DNA of 64,000 nt from Actinomycetota bacterium (GCA_021325455.1 JAJPHD010000001.1:28306-92305); one strand, 5' to 3'; shown: positions 51,737 through 64,000, counted from the stretch's first letter. A program made the numbers and translations. Notes: a model not told the origin generated them from the letters alone.

Positions 51737-52987
51737 ATGCTCTCGGCCTCGAACCAACTCTTGCCGGCCCCGGGGCGGATGGCGGTCGACTTCGAGGAGC
51801 GGGTCGACTTCACCCGGCTGCACCGCTACCGCCTGGAACGGGCCCGAGCGGCGCTGGAGGCCTCCGGGCTCGGTGCCCTCCTGTGCTTCGACATGAACAA
51901 CATCCGCTACCTCACCTCCACCCACATAGGGGAATGGGCCCGGGACAAGGTCTGCCGCTACGCCCTCCTGACCAGGGGCGGGGAGCCGACGCTGTGGGAC
52001 TTCGGGTCGGCAGCCAAGCACCACCGCCTGCACGCCCCCTGGCTGGCCCCGGAGCGCTGCCTGGCCGGGATGGTGGGCCTGCGCGGCTCGGTGGCCCCCG
52101 AGGCGGGCCTGCTGGACCGGGCCGCCGCCGAGCTGGCCGGGCTGCTCGCCGACGCCGGCGTGGCCGGTATGCCGCTGGGCGTGGACATCGCCGAGCCGAC
52201 CATGATCTTCGCCCTCCAGGAGGCCGGCGTGGAGGTCCGCGACGGCCAGCAGGTCATGCTGGACGCCCGCCAGATCAAGTCCGGAGACGAGATCACCCTG
52301 CTCTCCATGTCGGCCGCCATGGTCGACGGCGCCTACCAGCGCATCGCCGAGGTGCTGAAGCCCGGCATCCGGGAGAACGAGATCGTGGCCGAAGTCAACA
52401 AGGTCCTCTACGACATGGGCTCCGACGACGTGGAGGCCGTCAACGCCGTTTCCGGGGAGCGCTGCAGCCCCCATCCCCACGTCTTCTCCGACCGCCTGAT
52501 CCGCCCGGGAGACCAGGCCTTCTTCGACATCATCCAGGCCTACAACGGCTACCGCACCTGCTACTACCGCACCTTCAACGTGGGGCGGGCCACGCCGGCC
52601 CAGCGCGACGCCTACACGCGGGCCCGGGAGTGGATCGACGCCGCCATCGACCTGGTGAAGCCGGGGGTGACCACCGACACCATCGCCCGGGTGTGGCCCC
52701 GAGCCGAGGAGTTCGGCTTCGAGTCCGAGATGGAGGCCTTCGGCCTCCAGTTCGGCCACGGCCTGGGCCTGGCCCTCCACGAGCGACCCATCATCAGCAG
52801 GCTCAACTCCTTGGACCACCCCGTGGAGCTCCACGAGGGAATGGTCTTCGCCCTGGAGACCTACTGCCCCGCTGCTGACGGCTACTCGGCGGCCCGCATC
52901 GAGGAGGAGGTGGTGGTCACCGCCAGCGGGGCCCAGGTGATCACCCTGTTCCCGGCCGACGAGCTGTTCGTCGCCAACCCCTACTAG
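51737..52987 (+). CDS. M24-family (Xaa-Pro peptidase/creatinase/DddP-like) enzyme
   Basis: FDMNNIRYLT creatinase N-domain, GHGLGLALHE, FALETY, RIEEEV. Confidence 0.88.
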   Translation: MLSASNQLLPAPGRMAVDFEERVDFTRLHRYRLERARAALEASGLGALLCFDMNNIRYLTSTHIGEWARDKVCRYALLTRGGEPTLWDFGSAAKHHRLHAPWLAPERCLAGMVGLRGSVAPEAGLLDRAAAELAGLLADAGVAGMPLGVDIAEPTMIFALQEAGVEVRDGQQVMLDARQIKSGDEITLLSMSAAMVDGAYQRIAEVLKPGIRENEIVAEVNKVLYDMGSDDVEAVNAVSGERCSPHPHVFSDRLIRPGDQAFFDIIQAYNGYRTCYYRTFNVGRATPAQRDAYTRAREWIDAAIDLVKPGVTTDTIARVWPRAEEFGFESEMEAFGLQFGHGLGLALHERPIISRLNSLDHPVELHEGMVFALETYCPAADGYSAARIEEEVVVTASGAQVITLFPADELFVANPY

Positions 52988-52989
52988 CC

Positions 52990-54012
52990 GTGGCGACCTC
53001 CCCGCTCACGACCGGTACCGAGCCCGCCGCGAGGTCAGGCCCGGAGACCGGCCTGGCCCTGTACCGCTGGATGGTGGTGATCCGCCAGTTCGAGAAGCGG
53101 GCCTACGACCTCTTCCTCCAGAACCTGGTCAAGGGCACGAGCCACCTGTCCCTCGGCCAGGAGGCCGTGGCTGCCGGGTTCGGGGTGGCCATGAGGCCGG
53201 ACGACTGGACCTTCGCCACCTACCGGGGCCATGCCCACACCATCGTGCGCGGCGTCCCCCTGACCCCGATCATGGCCGAGCTCCTGGGCAGGGACAACGG
53301 CCTCCTGCGGGGCAAGGGCGGCTCCATGCACCTGACCAGCGTGGCCCACGGGATGATGGGCTCCTACGCCATCGTGGGCGCCCACCTGCCGGTGGCCGTG
53401 GGGGCGGCCTGGAGCGCCGCCTACAGGAAGAGCGGCCAGGTGGCGGTGTGCTTCTTCGGGGACGGGGCCACCAACATCGGGGCCTTCCACGAGGCCCTCA
53501 ACCTGGCCGTGGTGTGGAACCTGCCCGTCGTCTTCGTGTGCGAGAACAACCTCTACATGGAGTACACCCCCATCGGGGCGGTCACGGCCGTGCCGAGGCC
53601 GGCCGCCGACCGCGCCCCCGCCTACGGCCTACCGCCCGTCGCCATAGACGGCAACGACCCCGAGGTCGTCCACCAGACGGCCCTGGCCGCACTGGAGCGG
53701 GCCCGGTCGGGCGGGGGGCCCAGCCTCATCGAGGCCGTCACCTACCGCCACGGTGGCCACTCCCGGGCCGATCCCGCCACCTACCGCCCCAAGGAGGAGG
53801 TGGCGGACTGGCTCGCCCGCGACCCCGTCCCCGCCTATCGGGCCCGGCTCGTCGGGGCGGGGGTGCCCGAGGACGAGCTGCAGAGGGTGGAGGCTGAGGC
53901 CAAGGAGGCGGTGGACCGGGCCACCGAGGAGGCCAAGGCCGGCCCTCCCCCGGACCCCGGCCTGGTGACGGCCGACCTGTGGGCCGACGGGGGTTCGTCG
54001 TGGCGGAGCTGA
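52990..54012 (+). CDS. TPP-dependent dehydrogenase E1 alpha subunit
   Basis: HLSLGQEA, GKGGSMH, FGDGA...NN, YRHGGHS. Confidence 0.93.
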   Translation: MATSPLTTGTEPAARSGPETGLALYRWMVVIRQFEKRAYDLFLQNLVKGTSHLSLGQEAVAAGFGVAMRPDDWTFATYRGHAHTIVRGVPLTPIMAELLGRDNGLLRGKGGSMHLTSVAHGMMGSYAIVGAHLPVAVGAAWSAAYRKSGQVAVCFFGDGATNIGAFHEALNLAVVWNLPVVFVCENNLYMEYTPIGAVTAVPRPAADRAPAYGLPPVAIDGNDPEVVHQTALAALERARSGGGPSLIEAVTYRHGGHSRADPATYRPKEEVADWLARDPVPAYRARLVGAGVPEDELQRVEAEAKEAVDRATEEAKAGPPPDPGLVTADLWADGGSSWRS

Positions 54013-54974
54013 CGTACCGGGAGGCGGTGGCAAGGGCCATCGCCCAGGAGATGGAGCGGGATCCCTCGGTGGTCCTCCTGGGGGAGGACGTGGCCGGGGC
54101 CGGCGGGGCCTTCAAGGCCACCGGGGGGCTTCTCGAGCGGTTCGGCCCCGAGCGGGTGAGGGACACCCCCATCTCCGAGCAGGCCATCCTCGGGGCCGCC
54201 ATGGGGGCGGCCATGACCGGCCTGCGGCCGATCGCCGAGGTCATGTTCTCGGACTTCTTCGCCGTGTGCTGGGACATGGTGGCCAACCAGATCGCCAAGT
54301 CCCGCTACATGACCGCCGGCCAGGTCCAGCTTCCCCTGGTGGTGCGCTCGGGCAACGGCGGGGGGAGCCGGTTCGGGGCCCAGCACTCCCAGAGCGTCGA
54401 GAACTGGGCCATGGCCGTCCCCGGGCTGAAGGTCGTCGCCCCCAGCTGCCCCAGCGATGTCATCGGCCTGCTGGCCGCGGCCGTGCGGGACCCCGACCCG
54501 GTCCTCGTCTTCGAGCACAAGTCCCTCTACCCCACCAAGGGGGAGGTGCCCGACGGGGAGCTGGTGGGCCACCTGGGCCAGGCCGCCCTGCGCCGCCAGG
54601 GAGGTGACCTCACGTTGGTGGCCCTGGCGGCCATGGTCCCCGTGGCCCTCGAGGCGGCCGAGCGCCTGGCCGCCGAGGGGGTGCAGGCGACCGTCATAGA
54701 CCTGCGCTCGCTGGTGCCCCTGGACGTGTCGACCGTCCTGTCCTCGGTCAGCGCCACCGGCCATCTGGTGACGGTGGAGGAGAACCCCCGCCTCTGCGGC
54801 TGGGGAGCCGAGCTGGCCTCCATCGTGGCCGAGGAGTGCTTCTACGACCTGGACGGGCCCATCGTCAGGGTCACCACCCCCCACGTGCCCCTGCCGGCCG
54901 CCGACTCGCTCGAGGACCTGGCCCGGCCCTCCGTGGCTCGGGTGCTCGAGGCCGTGCCCCGGGCGTTGGGGTGA
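54000..54974 (+). CDS. TPP-dependent dehydrogenase E1 beta subunit
   Basis: LGEDV, DTPISE, GAQHSQ, IDLRSL. Confidence 0.93.
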   Translation: MAELTYREAVARAIAQEMERDPSVVLLGEDVAGAGGAFKATGGLLERFGPERVRDTPISEQAILGAAMGAAMTGLRPIAEVMFSDFFAVCWDMVANQIAKSRYMTAGQVQLPLVVRSGNGGGSRFGAQHSQSVENWAMAVPGLKVVAPSCPSDVIGLLAAAVRDPDPVLVFEHKSLYPTKGEVPDGELVGHLGQAALRRQGGDLTLVALAAMVPVALEAAERLAAEGVQATVIDLRSLVPLDVSTVLSSVSATGHLVTVEENPRLCGWGAELASIVAEECFYDLDGPIVRVTTPHVPLPAADSLEDLARPSVARVLEAVPRALG

Positions 54975-57394
54975 GCCGGCCCAGCCCGGCTGCACCCCGG
55001 CCGGCGGGCGGCGCCCCGGACGACGAGCCACCCTGGGTGGGCCGCCCGCTCCGGCGCACCGAGGACGACCGGCTCCTCAGGGGCCAGGGCAGGTATGTCG
55101 GCAACCTGGCCCCTCCCGGGCTCGCCCACATGGTGGTGGCCCGCAGCCCCTTGGCCCACGCCGCCATCCGGTCCATCGAGACCTCGAGGGCCAGGACGGC
55201 CCCCGGCGTGCTGGCCGTGCTCACGGCGGCGGACCTCGAGGGCGGGCTGAAGGGCAGCATGCCCATCACCGTCCCCGAGGGCGCCCAGGTGCCCGCCGTG
55301 CCCGTTCCGGTCCTGGCCGATGGGGTGGCTCGCTTCGCCGGGGAGCCGGTGGCCTGCGTGGTGGCCGAGAGCCAGGCTGCGGCGGAGGACGCCCGAGACC
55401 TGCTGGAGGTCGACTACGAGGCCCTGCCCGTGGTCACGGGGACGGACCAGGCCGCCGCTGGCACTCCCTGCCTCCACCCCGGCGCCCCCGGCAACGTCCT
55501 GCTTCGCTGGCACCTTGCCGAAGGGGACGTGGCAGGGACCTTCGCCAGCGCCGCCCATGTGGTGCGGGCCCGGCTGGAGGTGCCCCGCCTCGCCGCCGCC
55601 CCCATCGAGGCGCGGGGCTGCCTGGCCGAGTACCTACCCGGGCCCGGCACCATGACCCTGTGGTGCTCGGCCCAGGACCCCCACCGCCCCCGCTCCCACC
55701 TGGCCGCCGTGCTGGGCCTCGATCCCTCGTCGGTGCGGGTGGTGGTCCCTGACGTGGGCGGGGCCTTCGGGAGCAAGGGCACCCTGGCCCCGGAGCACGC
55801 CCTGGCCGCCGTATGCGCCCGGGCGCTCGGACGTCCGGTGCGGTGGGTGGAGGACCGCAGCGAGAGCTTCCTCGCCTCGTACCAGGGACGCGGCCTGGTG
55901 GCGGAGGCGGCGCTGGCCACCGACGGCTCGGGCCGGTTCCTTGCCATCCAGGCCCGCCTGGCGTGGGACCTGGGGGCCTACCTCTACCCGACCACCCCGG
56001 TGGTCCCCATCACCTCGGCCCGCCTGCTGGTGGGCGGTTACGACATAGCCGTGGCCGAGGTGGAGGTCCTCGGCCTGGCCACCAACAAGGTGCCCACCGG
56101 CCCTTACCGGGGGGCGGGCCGGCCCGAGGCCGCCTATGTGGTGGAGCGCCTGGCGGACCTGGCTGCTGCCCGCCTGGGGCTGGACCCTGTCGAGATCAGG
56201 AGGCGGAACCTCATCGGTGCGGACCGGTTCCCCTACCGGACCGCCCTCGGGTTCACCTACGACTCGGGCAACTACGAGGCCGCCCTCGACCGGGCCTGCG
56301 AGCTGGCCGACTACCGCCGCTGGAGGCAGCCCCCCCGGGAACAGGGTGCCGAGGGGCAGCCCCCGGGCGGGGCCGGAGCCCGGCGAGGCCGGACCCGGAC
56401 CGGGATCGGGGTGGCCCTCTTCGTCGAACGGGCGGGAGCCGGGCTGTGGGAGGGCGCCACCGTCGAGATGACGAACGACGGCCACGCCCTGGTCCGCCCC
56501 GGGTCGAGCAGCCATGGCCAGGGACACGAGACGGTCTTCGCCCAGATCGCCGCCGACAGGCTGGGGCTCCGCCCCGAGCAGGTCCGCGTCCTCCAGGGGG
56601 ACTCTGCCGCCGGCCCCCCCGGCGTGGGGACCTATGGCAGCCGCTCCATCACGGTGGGAGGCTCCGCCGTGGCCCTGGCGGCCGACTCGGTCCTGGCCAA
56701 GGCCAAGGCGGTGGCTGCTCACCACCTCGAGGTGGCCCCCGAGGACCTGCGCTACGAGGCGGGGCACTTCTGGGTGGCGGGCACTCCCACGCGTCGGCTC
56801 ACCCTGGCCGAGGTGGCCCGGGTGGCGGCAGACCCCGGAGCCCTGCCGGCGGGCATGGCCGCCGGCCTGGAGGCCACCGAGCGGTTCTCCCTGCCCGGCC
56901 CCGTCTTCCCCTTCGGGGCCCATGTCGCTGTGGTCGAGGTGGACCTGGACACCGGCTCGGTGCGACTGGTCCTGCTGGTGGCGGTGGACGACGCCGGGAC
57001 AGTGGTGAACCCCCTCCTGGCCGAAGGCCAGGTGCTGGGGTCCTCCATCCAGGGCATGGCTGCAGCCATGCTGGAGGAGGTGGTCCACGACGACCAGGGC
57101 CAGCTCCTCACGGCCAGCTTCGCCGACTACGGCGTACCGGGGCCCCCCGAGGCCGGGTTCCCTGTCCGGACCGAGCTGCTGCACACCCCCTCACCCTTCA
57201 ACCCCCTCGGGGCCAAGGGGCTGGGGGAGAGCGGGACCATCGGGGTGCCCGCGGCCGTGGCCAACGCCGTGGCGGATGCCCTTGGCCCTCTGGGGGTGGG
57301 GCACCTGGACCCCCCCTACACCCCGGCCAGGGTGTGGGCGGCGCTGGCCGGGGCGAGAGCGGCTGCAGGTGAGGGTGGTGGGGGGATTGGCTGA
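54971..57394 (+). CDS. Xanthine dehydrogenase-family molybdopterin-binding large subunit (CoxL form II-like)
   Basis: [35 protein letters not shown]. Confidence 0.92.
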
Positions 57395-58490
57395 GGGCCA
57401 CGTGACGCTGCGGGACGTGGCCGAGCGGGCCGGCGTCCACCCCGCCACCGCCTCCCGGGCCCTCAACCCCGAGACGCGCGCCCTGGTGAAGGGCGCAACC
57501 GCCCAGAGGGTGCTCCGAGCCGCCCGGAGCCTGGACTACCAGCCCAACCCCATGGCCCGCAGCCTCAAGACCCGGCGCTCCCATACCGTGGGCATGCTCA
57601 TCCCCGACCTCACCAACCCCTTGTTCCCCCCCATCGTGCGCGGGGTGGAGGACCGCCTGGCCGCGGCCGGCTACGTGGCCCTGGTCGGGAACACCGACAA
57701 CGACGAGGACCGGGCCCGCCTCGTGCTGGACAGGATGCGGGCTCGCCATGTCGACGGCTTCATCATGGCCATCGCCCACCGCAGCGACACCCTGCTCGAC
57801 CGGGCCGCACGGGCCAGGATCCCCATCGTCCTCGTCAACCGGGTGGTGGAGAGCAATGTCTTCCCCTCTGTCTCGGTGGACAACCGGGCCGGCACCGCCA
57901 TGGTCGTGGCCCACCTGGCCGGCCTCGGCCACCGCCGCATCGCCTGCGTGGCCGGCCCCCAGGACCTGTCCACCGGCTTCGGCCGCTACCGGGGCTTCCT
58001 GGAGGGTATGGCGGCCGCCGGCCTGGAGGTGGACCCCAGCCAGGTCGTCTTCGCCGAGTCCTTCTCCCAGGCCGAGGGCCTGCGCTGCACCCGGGAGCTC
58101 CTGGCTGCCGGCCTGGGGGCAACCGCCGTGGTGGCCGCCAACGACATGCTGGCCCTGGGCGTGTACGCCGCCCTGGAGGAGGCCGGACTGCGCTGCCCGG
58201 CCGACGTCTCGGTGGTGGGCTTCAACGACATGCCTTTCATCGACCGGCTGCGGCCCCCCCTCACCTCGGTGCGCTTCCCCCACTACGAGGTGGGCACGGA
58301 GGCCGCCCAGCTCATGCTGGAGAGGCTGAGCCACCGCACCTCCCCGGTGAAGGTGCTCTACCTGGCCCCCGAGCTGGTCGTGAGGGGGTCCACGGAGCCC
58401 CCCCCGGCGCCGGCCGCCGGACGGCAGGCCAGGGGCAGGCAAGGGACGAGGGCCAGACGGCTAAGGGCCGTCACCTCTCCCGCCAGCTGA
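57387..58490 (+). CDS. LacI-family transcriptional regulator
   Basis: TLRDVAERAGVHPATASRAL, YQPNPMARSL, VVGFND. Confidence 0.94.
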   Translation: MAEGHVTLRDVAERAGVHPATASRALNPETRALVKGATAQRVLRAARSLDYQPNPMARSLKTRRSHTVGMLIPDLTNPLFPPIVRGVEDRLAAAGYVALVGNTDNDEDRARLVLDRMRARHVDGFIMAIAHRSDTLLDRAARARIPIVLVNRVVESNVFPSVSVDNRAGTAMVVAHLAGLGHRRIACVAGPQDLSTGFGRYRGFLEGMAAAGLEVDPSQVVFAESFSQAEGLRCTRELLAAGLGATAVVAANDMLALGVYAALEEAGLRCPADVSVVGFNDMPFIDRLRPPLTSVRFPHYEVGTEAAQLMLERLSHRTSPVKVLYLAPELVVRGSTEPPPAPAAGRQARGRQGTRARRLRAVTSPAS

Positions 58491-59063
58491 GCCGGCCACC
58501 CCCGGCGCCAGGCCGGCGCTGGTCCCGGCCAGGACCTCCCCGTGCCCGATGCCGAGGGTCTTGATCCAGCGCTGCTGGCCGAGGGTCAGGGCCACGAAGA
58601 ACCCCAGCTCCACCAGCTCGGGCTCGCTGAAGAACCGGTGCAGACGGGCCCACAGCTCGTCGTCGGCGATGGCGGCATCCCAGATGATGGCGCTGGTATA
58701 GGTGAGGGCCACCTTCTCCCGCTCGCTGAACTTGTCAGAGGTGGAGAAGCGCAGCAGCTCCGAGTACTTGTCCTCGCTCAATCCCGCCTGCCCAGCCTGG
58801 ACAGATCGCTGGGCGCCTCAGTACGAGCAGGCGATGGACTGGGACACGTAGTTGCGGCACAGCTCCTTTAGGCCGTGGTCGAGGACCCCGTGGCGGAAGG
58901 TGAGGTCCCAGGCCTGCGAGAACGCCCTTATCACCGCCGGGTTGTGCGCCCGGATGGCCTGGCTCTCGGGGCGGGGCGTCCCCTCCAGGCGGGCGCGCTC
59001 CAGGTATCCCGCTATCTCCGGGTCCGAGACGGTGCTGGGGTCGACGTAGCTGATGTGGGGCAT
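58461..59063 (-). CDS. AhpD/carboxymuconolactone decarboxylase-family protein, probable selenoprotein (CSYU, Sec at codon 82; 200 aa)
   Basis: ORFs 58818..59063 and 58461..58781 are in the same frame and separated only by TGA 58820-58818. Read-through gives LKELCRNYVSQSIACSYUGAQRS...SEREKVAL...FSEPELVEL. Confidence 0.75.
58783..58817 (-). other. Candidate bacterial SECIS hairpin
   Basis: After UGA: GGCGCCCAGCGAU-CUGUCCA-GGC-UGGGCAG-GCGGG. The 7-bp apical stem has a G-first loop 20 nt from the UGA, plus a bulged lower stem. Folded by eye. Confidence 0.55.
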
Positions 59064-59081
59064 GTGGGGACCTCCCTCGTG

Positions 59082-60749
59082 TCAGTTGGTGGTTGGATCC
59101 TCGGGACCAGGGCGCTGCGTTCCCGGGTGCGCCGGCGGCGGGCCGCCTCCCCGGCCGGGCGAGCCCCGGGCCCCCCTGCCCACGACCTCCTCCAGGCTGG
59201 TCCCGAGGTCGGCCAGGATGACCATGGCGGCGTTGCGGCCAGGGGCCCCGGACACCGACCCGCCGGGATGGGTGGTGGCGCCGGTCTGGTAGAGGCCGGG
59301 GATGGGAAGCCGGTGCCCAGCCCACCCCGGTGCGGGGCGCAGCCGCCCCGACTGCGCCGGCCCCATGTCTCCGCCGTGGCAGGAGCCGTGCCAGTTGTGG
59401 GGGTTCTGGCGCTCCAGGTCCAGGGGGCTAACCACGTCCTGGTGCAGGATCACTCCCTCGGTGAGGTTGGGGGCGAACCGCCTGAGCTGGGCCAGATGGG
59501 CCGCCGCCACCGCTTCCTTGATGGCGTCCCAGCGCTCAGGGCCCCCGGCCAGCTCGTAGGGCTGGAAGCCGATCACCTTGAGCGTATGGCAGCCGGCGGG
59601 CGCCCGGGTGGGATCGGCCACGGTGGGACAGAGGACCAGCAGCGAGGGGTCCTCCAGGGCCACCGCCCCCTGGCGGAACTGGGCCGCCAGGCCGAGAATG
59701 GACTCGGCGGAAGGCACGATCCCGCAGGCCACTGCCTCACGCCGGTCCCTGCCCACGGAGAAGCGCGGGGGCTCGGTGGTGGCGTAATGGGCCACGAACA
59801 TGGACAGCCCCGGCTGCCAGGTATCGACCGCCTCCACGAAGGTCTCGCCCCACAGGTCGGGTCCAGCCATGGCGACGAGGTCCTTCACGTGGATGCTGGA
59901 CACCACCGCCCTGCCCGCCCGCCACAGGCTCCCGTCCGCCGTCTCCACCCCGGTGCAGCGGCCGGCCTCGATGAGCAGGCCCACCACCTGGTGGTCCGTG
60001 CGCACCTCCCCCCCGTGGTCCTCGATGAGCCGCCTGAGGGCGGAGCAGAGGGCCCCCGATCCGCCCCGGGGCAGGGTCCAGCTGTGGCGCTGGCGGCCGT
60101 ACACGAGCGAATAGGCAAGCAGGCCTCCCCCGGCCCGGTCCACCGGCTGGAGGGTCATGAAGGCCATCCAGGCCATGAAGGCCCTCACGTGCTCCTCCTC
60201 GAAGCGGGCGGCGATCACCTCCCAGGCGCTCATGGCCGCCCGCTTGGCCCACTTGCCCCCGCCGGGGCCGTCCTGCAGCAGGTCGTCGAGGGACGGGCCC
60301 CAGCCCACCGGCGTGTAGCGCCACTGGCCGTAGAGAGGGGCGATCTCCTCGTAGTCGTCCAGCAGGCTCAGGTAGGCACTAGCATCGTGCTTCGAGAAGC
60401 GGGCCAGCTCCTCCGCCGTGCGCCGGGGGTCCCGCCACTGGGTGATCCAGCTCCCGTCGGCAAAGGGCACGTGGACGACGGGGTCGGGGTGGATGTACTC
60501 GAGCCCGTAGGCACCGAGGCCGAGCTCGTCCCGACGGACCATGGGACTGGCCTGAAGGAGGTTGTGGGCCGTGGAGCACGAGTCGTGGACGAAGCCGGGG
60601 AGGGTTCTCTCCTCCGAGCTGGTGTCGCCCCCGAGGACGTGCCTGCCCTCGAGCACCAGGCAGCGGAAGCCGGCCTTGGCCAGGTAGGCCGCCGTGACCA
60701 GGGAGTTGTGCCCTCCCCCGGCCACGACCACGTCGAAGGCGTCACTCAC
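59082..60749 (-). CDS. Phytoene dehydrogenase-like (COG1233) FAD-dependent oxidoreductase
   Basis: VVAGGGHNSL, TLPGFVHD, PRGGSG, SPLDLE, THPGGSVSGAPGRNAA. Confidence 0.88.
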   Translation of the reverse strand: MSDAFDVVVAGGGHNSLVTAAYLAKAGFRCLVLEGRHVLGGDTSSEERTLPGFVHDSCSTAHNLLQASPMVRRDELGLGAYGLEYIHPDPVVHVPFADGSWITQWRDPRRTAEELARFSKHDASAYLSLLDDYEEIAPLYGQWRYTPVGWGPSLDDLLQDGPGGGKWAKRAAMSAWEVIAARFEEEHVRAFMAWMAFMTLQPVDRAGGGLLAYSLVYGRQRHSWTLPRGGSGALCSALRRLIEDHGGEVRTDHQVVGLLIEAGRCTGVETADGSLWRAGRAVVSSIHVKDLVAMAGPDLWGETFVEAVDTWQPGLSMFVAHYATTEPPRFSVGRDRREAVACGIVPSAESILGLAAQFRQGAVALEDPSLLVLCPTVADPTRAPAGCHTLKVIGFQPYELAGGPERWDAIKEAVAAAHLAQLRRFAPNLTEGVILHQDVVSPLDLERQNPHNWHGSCHGGDMGPAQSGRLRPAPGWAGHRLPIPGLYQTGATTHPGGSVSGAPGRNAAMVILADLGTSLEEVVGRGARGSPGRGGGPPPAHPGTQRPGPEDPTTN

Positions 60750-61863
60750 CGCTCGATGCCCCGCCGGCCCCCGGCCCCGGGCCCGTCACGGCCCCGCCCC
60801 CCAGGCCCGGTGGCGGGGGCCGACCCCCTCCGGCGGCCTCCCCCCTCCTCTCCCCCAGGCGGAGCAGCCGGGCGGCATTGCCCCCGAGGACCTGGGCCTC
60901 GGCCTCTCCCGGCAGTCCCAGGGCGAGGACGTCCTCCACGGGATGGGGCGAGCCCATGTCGAAGGGCCGGTCCGAGCCCAGCATGACCTGGCTGGAGCCC
61001 ACCTCCTGGACCAGGCTCGACAGGAGGGCCCGGTCATGGGTCAAGGTGTCGAAGAAGAACCGGCGGAGCGACCGCCTGGGAGGCTCGCCCAGCCTGGCCC
61101 TGGCCTCGGGCCGCACCTGGTGGGCCCGGTCCAGCCGCCCCCACACCGCGGGCAGCACACCCCCGCCGTGGGCCAGGAGCACCCGGAGACGGGGATGGCG
61201 CTCGATGGTCCCCGAGAGCACCAGATGGGCCGCCGCCAGGGCCGTCTCCACCGGGTTGGCCAGCCCGTTCCACAGGTAGTACTGGCCCGAGACCGGCAGG
61301 CTGAGGCCCCTGGTGGCCGGATGGACGAAGACCAGGGCCTGGAGCTCCTCGGCGGCCTCGAAGAAGGGGAGGAACCGGTCGTCGCCGAGGTAGGCGCCGC
61401 CCACGCTGGCGGTCACCTCCACCCCCGCCAGGCCCGCGGACATCGCCTCCTCGAGCTGGACCGCCGCCTCCTCGGGCCGGCTCAGGGTCACCGCTCCCAG
61501 GGCGCTGACCGAACCGCGGCCGGCCACCACCGCCTTGGCCAGGGACTCGTTCTGCAGCCGGCAGACCTCGGCGGCCAGCCCGGGATCCAAGCCATTGGGG
61601 AGCAGGGCCACCCAGGGCGAGAGGAGGACGTGGCCGATCCCTGCCCGTGACGACTCGTCCAGGATGCCGTCGATGTCGACCAGCTCGCCCACCAGGGAGT
61701 CCACCGGCCTCCCCCCCAGCTCGACCACGCGCCGCCCGCCCCTCCCGGCCAGGACCGGACGCCACGGCTCCTCCCTGCCCGGGGCCCGCACCAGGTCCCG
61801 GCCCAGCACATGGGCATGGACGTCGACCACGGCGGCCCGCCCGGGCTCCTCCCGCCCCCTCAC
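60742..61863 (-). CDS. Amidohydrolase-2 family protein (ACMSD-like)
   Basis: DVHAH, VFVHP, AHGGG, FFFDT, LGSDRPFDMG. Confidence 0.87.
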   Translation of the reverse strand: MRGREEPGRAAVVDVHAHVLGRDLVRAPGREEPWRPVLAGRGGRRVVELGGRPVDSLVGELVDIDGILDESSRAGIGHVLLSPWVALLPNGLDPGLAAEVCRLQNESLAKAVVAGRGSVSALGAVTLSRPEEAAVQLEEAMSAGLAGVEVTASVGGAYLGDDRFLPFFEAAEELQALVFVHPATRGLSLPVSGQYYLWNGLANPVETALAAAHLVLSGTIERHPRLRVLLAHGGGVLPAVWGRLDRAHQVRPEARARLGEPPRRSLRRFFFDTLTHDRALLSSLVQEVGSSQVMLGSDRPFDMGSPHPVEDVLALGLPGEAEAQVLGGNAARLLRLGERRGEAAGGGRPPPPGLGGGAVTGPGPGAGGASSGE

Positions 61864-62693
61864 GGGCTTCCTCCCTCGTGACCGGAGCGGGGCCCCGCCG
61901 GGTGCTGCCCGGTGGGGCCGGCGCTGATGCCCCCGCCCAGGTACAAGGCGCCGATCTCCGGGTTGTCGAGGACCTCCCGGCCCGACCCGCTCAGGCGCAC
62001 CACCCCGTTCTCCAGCACCACCCCGTGGGTGCTGAGCCGGAGCCCAGCCCTGGCGTTCTGCTCCACGAGCAGGATCGTCCGTCCCTGGTCGTGCATCATG
62101 CGGATGGTCGCGAACACGGTCCGCAGGGTCCTCGGGTCCAGGCCCATGGACGGCTCGTCCAGGATCACCAGGAGGGGGTCGAGCATGAGGCAGCGGGCGA
62201 ACTCGATCAGGCGCTGCTGGCCTCCGGACAGGGCCCCCGCCTTGTCCCTGGCCCTCTCCCTGGCCACGGGGAACATCTCCATCACCTGCTCCAGCCGCCT
62301 CCGGGCCAGGGCCCGGTCCCCCAAGGTGAAGGCCCCCATCTCGATGTTCTCCCGGACCGTCATCTCCCTGAACAGGCTGTGGTTCTGGGGCACCTGCACC
62401 ACCCCCCGGCCGAGGATCTCCCTCGGCGTCCTGCCGACCAGGCTCCGGCCGTCGAAGCGGATGTCGCCCCGGCGGGGACGCAGGATCCCGCTGATGGCCG
62501 CCAGCACGGTCGACTTGCCGGCCCCGTTGGGCCCCACGACGCAGGTGATGCTGCCCTGCGGGACGGAGAAGGACACCCCACGCAGGACGTCACCACCGCC
62601 ATAGCCGGCAACCACGCCCTCCAGGACCAGCAGGCCCGGAGGCCGCGGGACCGGCCCCGCCCCCGCCAGCTCCTCAGAGGGAGCCCGCGCCAT
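61860..62693 (-). CDS. Branched-chain amino acid-type ABC ATP-binding protein (LivF-like)
   Basis: GPNGAGKST, LSGGQQ, LDEPSMGL, VEQN. Confidence 0.92.
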   Translation of the reverse strand: MARAPSEELAGAGPVPRPPGLLVLEGVVAGYGGGDVLRGVSFSVPQGSITCVVGPNGAGKSTVLAAISGILRPRRGDIRFDGRSLVGRTPREILGRGVVQVPQNHSLFREMTVRENIEMGAFTLGDRALARRRLEQVMEMFPVARERARDKAGALSGGQQRLIEFARCLMLDPLLVILDEPSMGLDPRTLRTVFATIRMMHDQGRTILLVEQNARAGLRLSTHGVVLENGVVRLSGSGREVLDNPEIGALYLGGGISAGPTGQHPAGPRSGHEGGSP

Positions 62694-63477
62694 CCTGGCC
62701 CTCCGGTCCGTCCCCGGGGTCCTCTTCGAGAGCCCCGCCCAGGTAGGCGTCCAGCACCCGCGGGTCGCTGCGCACGGTGGAGGGGGGACCGGTGAGAATG
62801 GCCGTCCCCTGGTGCATCACCGTCACCTGGTGGCAGAGGCTCATCACGAACTCCATGTTGTGCTCGACCACGAAGAAGGTCTTGCCCTGGCGGTTGAGCT
62901 CCCGGATGCGGTCGGCTATGTGGTTGATGAGGGAGGGGTTCACGCCCCCTGCCGGCTCGTCCAGCAGTATGACGGCGGGATCGGCGACCAGCACGTAGGC
63001 CAGCTCCAGCAGCTTGCGCTGGCCGTAGGAGAGGCTGCCGGCGGGCTTCGAGGCCAGCCGGGCGATGCCGACGAACTCCAGCAGCTCGAGGGCCCGCCTG
63101 CGCTCTCCGGGCGAGCCGGCCCTCGTGCAAAGGCTGCGCAGGCCCCTGCGGCCCGCCTGGGAGGCCACCAGCATGTTCTCCATGACGCTCAAGCGGGAGA
63201 AGATCCGGGTCAGCTGGAAGGTACGCCCCAGACCCAGGGCGAACACCCTGTCAGGCGAGGCCCGGGTGATCCGCCTCCCGCTGAAGTAGATCTCCCCACG
63301 GTCCACCCTCTCGTACCCGGTGGCCACGTTGAACAGGGTGGTCTTCCCCGAGCCGTTGGGCCCTATGAGGCCGGCGATCGTGCCCTCCTCGACCCCCACC
63401 GAGCACTCCGACAGGGCCTGCACGCCGCCGAAGGCCTTGCAGGCCGAGTCCACCAGGAGAAGGGGGGCGGAGCTCAC
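62674..63477 (-). CDS. Branched-chain amino acid-type ABC ATP-binding protein (LivG-like)
   Basis: GPNGSGKTT, LSYGQRK, LDEPAGG, VEHNM, DAYLG. Confidence 0.92.
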   Translation of the reverse strand: MSSAPLLLVDSACKAFGGVQALSECSVGVEEGTIAGLIGPNGSGKTTLFNVATGYERVDRGEIYFSGRRITRASPDRVFALGLGRTFQLTRIFSRLSVMENMLVASQAGRRGLRSLCTRAGSPGERRRALELLEFVGIARLASKPAGSLSYGQRKLLELAYVLVADPAVILLDEPAGGVNPSLINHIADRIRELNRQGKTFFVVEHNMEFVMSLCHQVTVMHQGTAILTGPPSTVRSDPRVLDAYLGGALEEDPGDGPEGQDGAGSL

Positions 63478-64000
63478 CCGCGCCTCACCGCCGGTCCCGA
63501 GGGCCCCGGGGGGCTCACGGCCCCCCCGCCCGCAGCGCCCGCCACGCCCCCCCCTGCCATCTCGGAGGACAGGACCCCGCCCGCCGCATCGGGCCCGGAC
63601 GCCAGGGCGGTGCTCCCCGACCGGCGCTCCCGCCAGCTCGCCACCCGGTCGCGGACGGTGGGGATGATCCCCCGAGGCAGGAGCAGGATCACCACCAGGA
63701 ACAGGGCTCCGTAGACCACGAGGTAGAGGGCGTTGGACGAGAACTGCAGGGTGAAGTACTGCTGGAGAGGCTCGAGTATCAAGGCACCGAGGAGGGGCCC
63801 CGACACCGTCCCCAGGCCGCCCAGGAAGGCCATAAGGGCCACCGATATGTCGAAGAGGGGGTCGAAGGCGAACTGGGGGTACACCTGGCCGATGAAGTAG
63901 GCCCACACCGCTCCAACCATGCCCACCGGCAAGGCGGACAGGGCGAAGGCCGTCAGCTTCACCCTCGAGACCCTCACGCCCAGGCTGAGAGCCCGGTCCT
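63474..64000 (-). CDS. Branched-chain amino acid-type ABC permease (LivM-like), 5' part outside window
   Basis: KLTAFALSA, FLGGLGTVSGPLLGA, LLPRGI. Confidence 0.88.
   Translation of the reverse strand, partial: DRALSLGVRVSRVKLTAFALSALPVGMVGAVWAYFIGQVYPQFAFDPLFDISVALMAFLGGLGTVSGPLLGALILEPLQQYFTLQFSSNALYLVVYGALFLVVILLLPRGIIPTVRDRVASWRERRSGSTALASGPDAAGGVLSSEMAGGGVAGAAGGGAVSPPGPSGPAVRRG

Follow-up and report, generated by a model that had tools for sequence, protein, structure and literature searches.

CxxU selenoproteins of the AhpD/CMD superfamily have been listed since 2005, when 27 AhpD-like sequences and 4 with a CMD domain were reported from the Sargasso Sea (PMC1088965), and the GOS set of 2008 contains the families AhpD-like 1 and 2 (PMC2398784). 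The AhpD/CMD selenoprotein family also appears in PMC9312934 and in BSepDB (PMC13326102), and table 1 of a 2026 review holds five AhpD/CMD-related entries, all of them "predicted with high confidence" (PMC13188914); the main text of the deep-Sep paper makes no mention of AhpD or CMD. Since such proteins have been listed for this long, what we describe is a correct re-annotation and not a discovery. The published AhpD-like (COG2128/TIGR01926) and CMD-like (PF02627) sets, compared here by family and description, resemble our protein in the CxxU motif, the PF02627 domain, the UGA followed by a bSECIS and the existence of widespread Cys homologues, although its score on TIGR01926 is 24.5 bits against a cut-off of 81.8.

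The gene lies on the minus strand of a 64,000-nucleotide stretch of DNA from an Actinomycetota bacterium (hereafter the window), where standard gene calling splits its 200-codon frame into products of 81 and 106 residues (59063-58818 and 58781-58461). The preliminary description of this DNA had placed both ORFs in one frame, with only the TGA at 58820-58818 between them, and had read them as an AhpD-type CxxU selenoprotein. Translation with TGA as U does give 200 residues with a single recoded step, U82, in the context VSQSIACSYUGAQRSVQAGQAG, and the selenoprotein reading is supported. Our best explanation, which we hold to be highly probable, is that this is one gene whose UGA is read as selenocysteine by way of a hairpin, yielding an AhpD-fold CxxU oxidoreductase that is likely accessory to nearby catabolic genes. 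The features of the locus are collected in Table 1.

Table 1. The predicted selenoprotein gene, its sequence elements and its neighbours; positions are counted from the first base of the window.
Feature	Position	Strand	Basis
Full gene, 200 codons + TAG stop; AhpD/CMD-fold protein, predicted Sec at codon 82	58461..59063	-	Single recoded TGA; PF02627; homologues; model
In-frame TGA, predicted selenocysteine U82	58818..58820	-	TGA in 132/158 related loci, Cys in 109/120 database proteins
C79-S-Y-U82 redox motif (CxxU)	58818..58829	-	Aligns with C48-A-Y-C51 of PA0269; C79 in 158/158 loci
Predicted bacterial SECIS hairpin: 6-bp stem 58804-58799 with 58793-58788, loop AGGCU, G at 58797	58788..58804	-	Conservation, covariation
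Q85-R86-S87, in place of AhpD proton-relay His	58803..58811	-	QRS in 157/158 loci, QKS in 1
E67-L-C69: E67 matches relay Glu36 of PA0269; C69 is a third invariant Cys	58857..58865	-	100-sequence alignment A3; PA0269 alignment
Clade signature GTPRPESQ, residues 28-35	58959..58982	-	Invariant in 100-sequence alignment A3
GGAGG Shine-Dalgarno-like site, 7 nt before ATG	59071..59075	-	Sequence
FAD-dependent oxidoreductase (phytoene-desaturase-like), upstream, ends 18 nt before the gene	59082..60749	-	Below all NCBIfam cut-offs
Amidohydrolase-2 family gene, same predicted operon	60742..61863	-	PF04909, E 1e-30
Branched-chain amino-acid-type ABC transporter: two ATPases and a permease cut by the window end	61860..63998	-
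Convergent M24 peptidase-like, TPP-dependent E1 alpha and beta, molybdenum hydroxylase large subunit, LacI regulator	51737..58490	+

Reading of the in-frame UGA

Full-length homologues of the 200-residue protein reach 80% identity, and a TGA-bearing match of 82% identity in one further genome (G003) stands outside all of the locus counts given here. If the UGA encodes selenocysteine, as had been proposed, the TGA should be kept in relatives and Cys should stand opposite it in homologues, and both are found: at 158 related loci the Sec position holds TGA in 132 and TGC in 26 with no other codon, and the 120 best database proteins have Cys there in 109 cases, with Trp in 10 and a gap in the remaining one. 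The genome loci, 79 from the top 80 among 158 confirmed stretches, were retrieved with the protein of the window itself, a query that biases towards close kin; they carry TGA in 77 and TGC in 2, and among the taxa named in their record titles are Rokubacteria, Binatia, Syntrophobacteraceae, Burkholderiales, Ktedonobacterales and Actinomycetota. The metagenome loci, 79 from the best 80 of at least 559 matches to an alignment of Cys-labelled proteins, carry TGA in 55 and TGC in 24. A sample of 401 genomes from the window's own phylum held a strong match in 14 other genomes, with TGA at 5 loci and Cys codons at 10, some of these overlapping the genome and metagenome loci. Among the 50 genome loci of the selA test described below, five (L037, L051, L098, L101, L103) lie in genomes flagged as unpublished and are counted in the codon, hairpin and selA tallies, L101 also serves as one neighbourhood example, and 12 flagged genomes enter the selA background tally; our conclusions do not hinge on them. 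The homologue motif CEYCGNQRS given in the preliminary description exists but is a minor form (2 of 120 proteins), the commonest being CEYCGGQRS (62 of 120).

A tree of 101 rows, built with the motif segment removed, needs 12 changes between Sec and Cys, at least 7 of them forced by well-supported branches; it uses 62 of 133 TGA rows, leaves out L033 and is arbitrarily rooted. Since 13 of the Cys rows in this tree are database proteins known at the protein level only, the root is arbitrary and the window gene has no well-supported placement, we claim no direction for these changes. Ten JGI proteins (P0002, P0003, P0007, P0008, P0012, P0018, P0023-P0025, P0028) have Trp at the Sec position, probably a database artefact of gene calling under code 4. 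Four distant homologues (L010, L016, L019 and L021, at 28-31% identity) also have TGA at the Sec position, followed by LNTRA, LSFRA, NTVRS and LDTRV, respectively, and are predicted to be further Sec-bearing AhpD-like clades.

Bacterial SECIS elements are modelled with a loop of 3-9 nt, a stem of 4-16 bp, a G in the first two loop positions, a distance of 16-37 nt from the UGA and a folding energy of at most -7.5 kcal/mol (PMC13188914). The hairpin pointed out earlier in the window, CUGUCCA-GGC-UGGGCAG, is present at 58804-58788, its G-first GGC loop beginning 20 nt after the UGA, and has a folding energy of -7.7 kcal/mol alone, -9.2 with 1 nt more per side and -7.3 as the bare 6-bp form. It falls within the published limits, with a loop of 3-5 nt, 6-7 bp, a G in first or second position, a distance of 19-20 nt and an energy of -7.7 to -9.3 kcal/mol. 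The complete six-pair hairpin occurs at 130 of 132 TGA loci, the other two folding a hairpin shifted by one base, and at none of the 26 TGC loci; the loop G is found at 131 of 132 against 7 of 26, and a local fold at or below -7.5 kcal/mol at 130 of 132 against 4 of 26. In an alignment of 78 sequences, 74 of them distinct, stem columns 17-22 pair with columns 28-33 in all 444 cells, with both-sided changes in three of the six pairs, as in pair 18/32, which is C-G (47), G-C (14) or U-A (13); the other three pairs are invariant. Covariation scores 0.270, compared with 0.113 for shuffled controls (0/500), a control that kin sequences can beat, and at most 0.038 with slid partners, and RNAalifold recovers the 6-bp stem unprompted. 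The stem is thus kept and covarying in the TGA forms and lost in the Cys forms, and it makes a clean, compact example of a bSECIS.

Folded by itself, however, this segment of the window is no more stable than its shuffles (z -0.7 to +0.15) and prefers a rival helix, so the evidence for a SECIS comes from conservation and the window alone is no proof. With the window mRNA folded free, the SECIS pair probability is 0.09 in 45-60 nt, 0.6 in 80 nt and 0.0 over its full length. Numbered from the U of UGA, the rival helix pairs nt 7-13 with 25-31; it was rejected as a conserved element, having 77.6% of its cells paired against 76.9% when shuffled. It requires nt 7-13, and when the first 14 nt (the UGA and the next 11) are held unpaired the probability of the SECIS stem becomes 0.89-0.97. 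A ribosome at the UGA, with an assumed footprint covering these 14 nt, would block the 5' nucleotides of the rival helix, and the SECIS stem could then form; SelB-GTP-Sec-tRNA would bind its G-containing loop and deliver Sec, as established Sec biology suggests. At one position of the stem the window has a U-G wobble in place of the U-A pair of most relatives, a difference that could weaken read-through in this gene.

The codons after the UGA had also been called unusual and taken as a sign of constraint at the RNA level. All five are indeed rare: across 1577 long ORFs of the genome the share among synonymous codons is 4.7% for CGA (Arg), 2.6% for TCT (Ser), 6.8% for GCT (Ala), 8.8% for GGA (Gly) and 4.2% for TTG (Leu). 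TTG, however, is the 13th codon and falls outside the first 12, and of the five the conserved hairpin contains just TCT and GCT. Codons ending in A or T make up 4 of the 12 that follow the UGA, against 13 among the gene's other 187, and of 175 twelve-codon windows the three that rank lowest begin at codons 84-86. A genome-wide scan for UGA plus hairpin returned 64 candidates and missed selD; because most of these are ordinary stops between adjacent genes, the hairpin alone is unspecific at 72% GC.

The selenocysteine reading also calls for selA, selB, selC and selD, and all are present over curated cut-offs in this 96%-complete genome. selA (C14:25141-26208) and selB (from C14:26310 through C14:28031) stand side by side on the plus strand of the window's own contig, directly preceding its first base (C14:28306); the tRNA-Sec is on the same contig (ARAGORN: SeC, anticodon tca), and selD, on another contig, has its own in-frame TGA in GAGUACK. 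The co-occurrence test covered 50 of the 79 genome loci (48 TGA, 2 TGC) and found selA over its cut-off in 46 of 48 TGA-bearing genomes, a fragment in one more, and a positive result in both Cys genomes; in the phylum sample all 5 TGA genomes have selA, as do 7 of the 9 with Cys forms, the background rate being 262 of 401. This is consistent with Sec use, but since selA is this common anyway and kin are non-independent, the test discriminates weakly.

We regard insertion of Sec at codon 82 as close to certain, as a prediction from sequence. If the TGA were instead a nonsense mutation or a sequencing error, leaving a pseudogene or two fragments, the separate 81-aa and 106-aa ORFs seen by gene callers would be as expected, as would a single-sequence hairpin no better than shuffles, but this explanation deserves practically no credence when the TGA recurs at 132 of 158 loci of many phyla, always at the Cys position and with a hairpin missing from the Cys forms. 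That UGA might be read as Trp or Cys, through code 4 or plain read-through, could be argued from the W at the Sec position in 10 of 120 database proteins; it is very improbable, given that the neighbouring gene stops at TGA 59084-59082, that the genome has tRNA-SeC(tca) and that related DNA has only TGA or TGC there, never TGG.

Predicted fold and active site

The protein scores 27.7 bits on PF02627 (gathering cut-off 23), and no NCBIfam model passes its cut-off for it. The best of these is NF053654, the YciW-related (seleno)protein, which matches it over nearly the full length (E 2e-16) and matches all 22 members of alignment A2; at 60 bits against a cut-off of 310 the window protein is a relative and not a member. 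The AhpD core model TIGR00778 has no match to it at E 0.01, NF041047 and NF041238 have none to P0001 at E 0.01, and another clade member, P0009, scores 21 bits on NF041047 against a cut-off of 110. A structure model folded with Cys at 82 (pLDDT 89, pTM 0.85) predicts an AhpD-like, all-helical fold, with Foldseek TM scores of 0.68-0.70 to Bmp8, 0.56-0.59 by query to PA0269 and 0.72 to a Ralstonia AhpD-core protein. Bmp8, an AhpD-fold protein titled a debrominase in the PDB (6OHI, 6OHJ), is of similar length, has a CxYC motif and is the top match both by profile (E 1e-10) and by Foldseek E-value; it differs in having only 20-22% identity and in the His after its CxxC, which aligns with Q85 of the window protein. 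Among the 40 most frequent neighbour clusters annotated near related loci there is no halogenase-type gene, and a literature search on Bmp8, debrominase and AhpD found no paper.

The comparison with PA0269, the AhpD of Pseudomonas aeruginosa (PDB 2O4D, 2IJC, 7XW1), is closest in the helical hairpin and in the Glu, Cys, Tyr and Cys/Sec that stand in register: a profile alignment places E67, C79, Y81 and U82 on Glu36, Cys48, Tyr50 and Cys51, and two PA0269-type features, the Glu 12 residues before CxxC and the Tyr in the spacer, are present. The relay His, four residues after the second Cys, is absent; R86 falls on His55, and at 157 of 158 loci QRS occupies this place, whether the form is Sec or Cys. 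This His is described as essential and as invariant among six structures (PMC3141380). As this defining feature of PA0269-type peroxidases is missing, we file the gene only under the CMD/AhpD superfamily. The window protein further differs from PA0269 in having Sec for the second Cys, a longer N-terminal part with an invariant motif and an extra invariant Cys69. Our literature search found no paper on the clade motif TPRPESQ, which is weak evidence. Of the features of this protein, the active site without a His most deserves further attention.

That the product is a redox enzyme is a prediction we consider very probable. By analogy with AhpD, the U82 selenolate would be the nucleophile that attacks an oxidised substrate, be it a peroxide, a disulfide or a small electrophile, and C79 would resolve the product to a selenenyl-sulfide, the roles being assigned as in the AhpD family. 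Re-reduction of the U82/C79 pair could, as in that family, come from a dithiol, for example thioredoxin or a dihydrolipoyl arm, and the task of the His relay in stabilising the anion would fall to Gln85/Arg86.

Catabolic surroundings and possible function

The selenoprotein gene is the last of a minus-strand run comprising the ABC transporter, the amidohydrolase-2 gene and the FAD oxidoreductase gene, with which it is likely co-transcribed. Past the window end this run extends through genes for a solute-binding protein and a 3-hydroxyisobutyrate-dehydrogenase-like protein, and an FrsA-like hydrolase lies on the other strand. The catabolic operon of the preliminary description fits this layout, since the gene follows a same-strand FAD oxidoreductase by 18 nt behind amidohydrolase and ABC-transporter genes, but the link to this operon is kept in only a minority of relatives. 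Neighbours were counted across the 158 loci (median flank 6.5 kb, rough ORF picking, non-independent loci), with annotation of 40 of the 72 clusters found in three or more loci; they vary, and the most frequent are catabolic genes, among them amidohydrolase-2 (28), 2-hydroxyacid dehydrogenase (20), glyoxalase-type (19) and luciferase-like monooxygenase (13). Ten loci have homologues of E1 alpha or beta, three have a lipoyl domain and one has a peroxiredoxin-like neighbour; at least two close homologues of the window's cluster genes share a locus in 8 of 158, the Mo-hydroxylase family is found in 5 related loci besides the window, and homologues of the convergent genes (51737..58490) recur beside some relatives of the selenoprotein gene. 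The catabolic surroundings are a tendency and no fixed partnership.

The gene set that includes these neighbours (window 51737-64000 and G000:C14:93887-97384) recurs shuffled in L033, L083, L084, L097, L146 and L176. It is made up of the M24 peptidase-like gene, E1 alpha/beta, the Mo-hydroxylase large subunit, LacI, the FAD oxidoreductase, amidohydrolase-2, the ABC transporter, the 3-hydroxyisobutyrate-dehydrogenase-like gene and the FrsA-like hydrolase; among its annotated genes there is no E2 adjoining E1 alpha/beta and no small subunit adjoining the Mo-hydroxylase. A gene in which a 2Fe-2S domain is fused to an adenylate/guanylate cyclase domain is found at L046:5694-7385 and at 17 more loci, all of the TGA form, and in 16 of these 18 it is convergent and directly downstream.

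We lean slightly towards a role accessory to catabolism over one as an AhpC adaptor, a preference that rests on a loose pattern because no single neighbour is conserved. If the selenoprotein were a classical AhpD, serving as the electron adaptor between a lipoyl arm and AhpC or as a weak peroxidase of general oxidative defence, it would take its place in a chain like NADH-Lpd-DlaT-AhpD-AhpC, known in M. tuberculosis (PMC12028322), and the matches at four of the five PA0269 relay positions (E67, C79, Y81, U82), the lipoyl-bearing E2 genes beside three Cys-form loci and the AhpC/TSA-family genes elsewhere in the genome would all be in keeping with this. The whole clade, however, has Arg/Gln for the relay His described as invariant and essential (PMC3141380), the TIGR00778 core goes unmatched at E 0.01, a peroxiredoxin-like neighbour occurs at 1 of 158 loci, and the genome's second CxxU gene does pass TIGR00778 and keeps its His, all of which makes a classical AhpD doubtful.

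Two variants of a more direct involvement, which together we judge rather unlikely, would have the protein catalyse a committed catabolic step on a small molecule, as Bmp8 does, or stand in for a lipoyl arm by accepting reducing equivalents from the adjacent E1 alpha/beta. The rank of Bmp8 as top match by profile and by Foldseek E-value speaks for the former; against it stand the low identity, the loss of the His of Bmp8 as well and the equal TM scores of other AhpD-like folds. For the latter there are the E1 homologues at 10 of 158 loci, directly adjacent and on the same strand in L083, L105, L146 and L157, with no E2 gene found in the DNA examined at the window or L083, but E1 is missing from 148 of 158 loci (with short flanks, median 6.5 kb) and three of the E1 loci do carry E2. 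A bolder proposal, improbable as it stands, is that the GTPRPESQ...CxYU-x-x-QRS clade is an unnamed selenoenzyme subfamily without a His relay, spread over many soil and groundwater phyla and with a catabolic chemistry of its own. That chemistry would be the reduction of a small heterocyclic or halogenated intermediate, or else the work of a lipoamide-free acceptor, whose selenenyl-sulfide would take acyl groups and electrons from TPP-dependent E1 alpha/beta without E2. If the His-less site does have its own substrate, a catabolic role would be added to a selenoprotein class with only predicted functions.

Annotation and other putative selenoprotein genes

The clade is found in many uncultured lineages, where gene callers break its genes in two or its proteins are recorded with Trp at the active site; no NCBIfam model covers it, and a new model would repair many records.

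Further in-frame TGA codons were observed elsewhere in the window's genome (G000), and with the TGA translated the first three genes described here resemble known types of selenoprotein. The second AhpD-type gene, at G000:C24:116650-116895 on the plus strand (locus L202:1073-1576), has the motif CGYULDMH, keeps its His, scores over the TIGR00778 cut-off and has a hairpin after the UGA. A UGSC-family selenoprotein candidate (UGSCTSCS) at G000:C20:44830 on the minus strand (L203) is over the NF041046 cut-off and has a hairpin with a GUG loop. The formate dehydrogenase alpha subunit at G000:C18:107364 on the plus strand (L204) has an in-frame TGA in SCNRTUHAP and scores 531.5 bits on a partial sequence against a cut-off of 666. 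An AhpC/TSA-family (TlpA-like) gene at G000:C12:14608-14970 on the minus strand has an in-frame TGA in FASW-x-GPC and, from this motif, is likely a UxxC selenoprotein.
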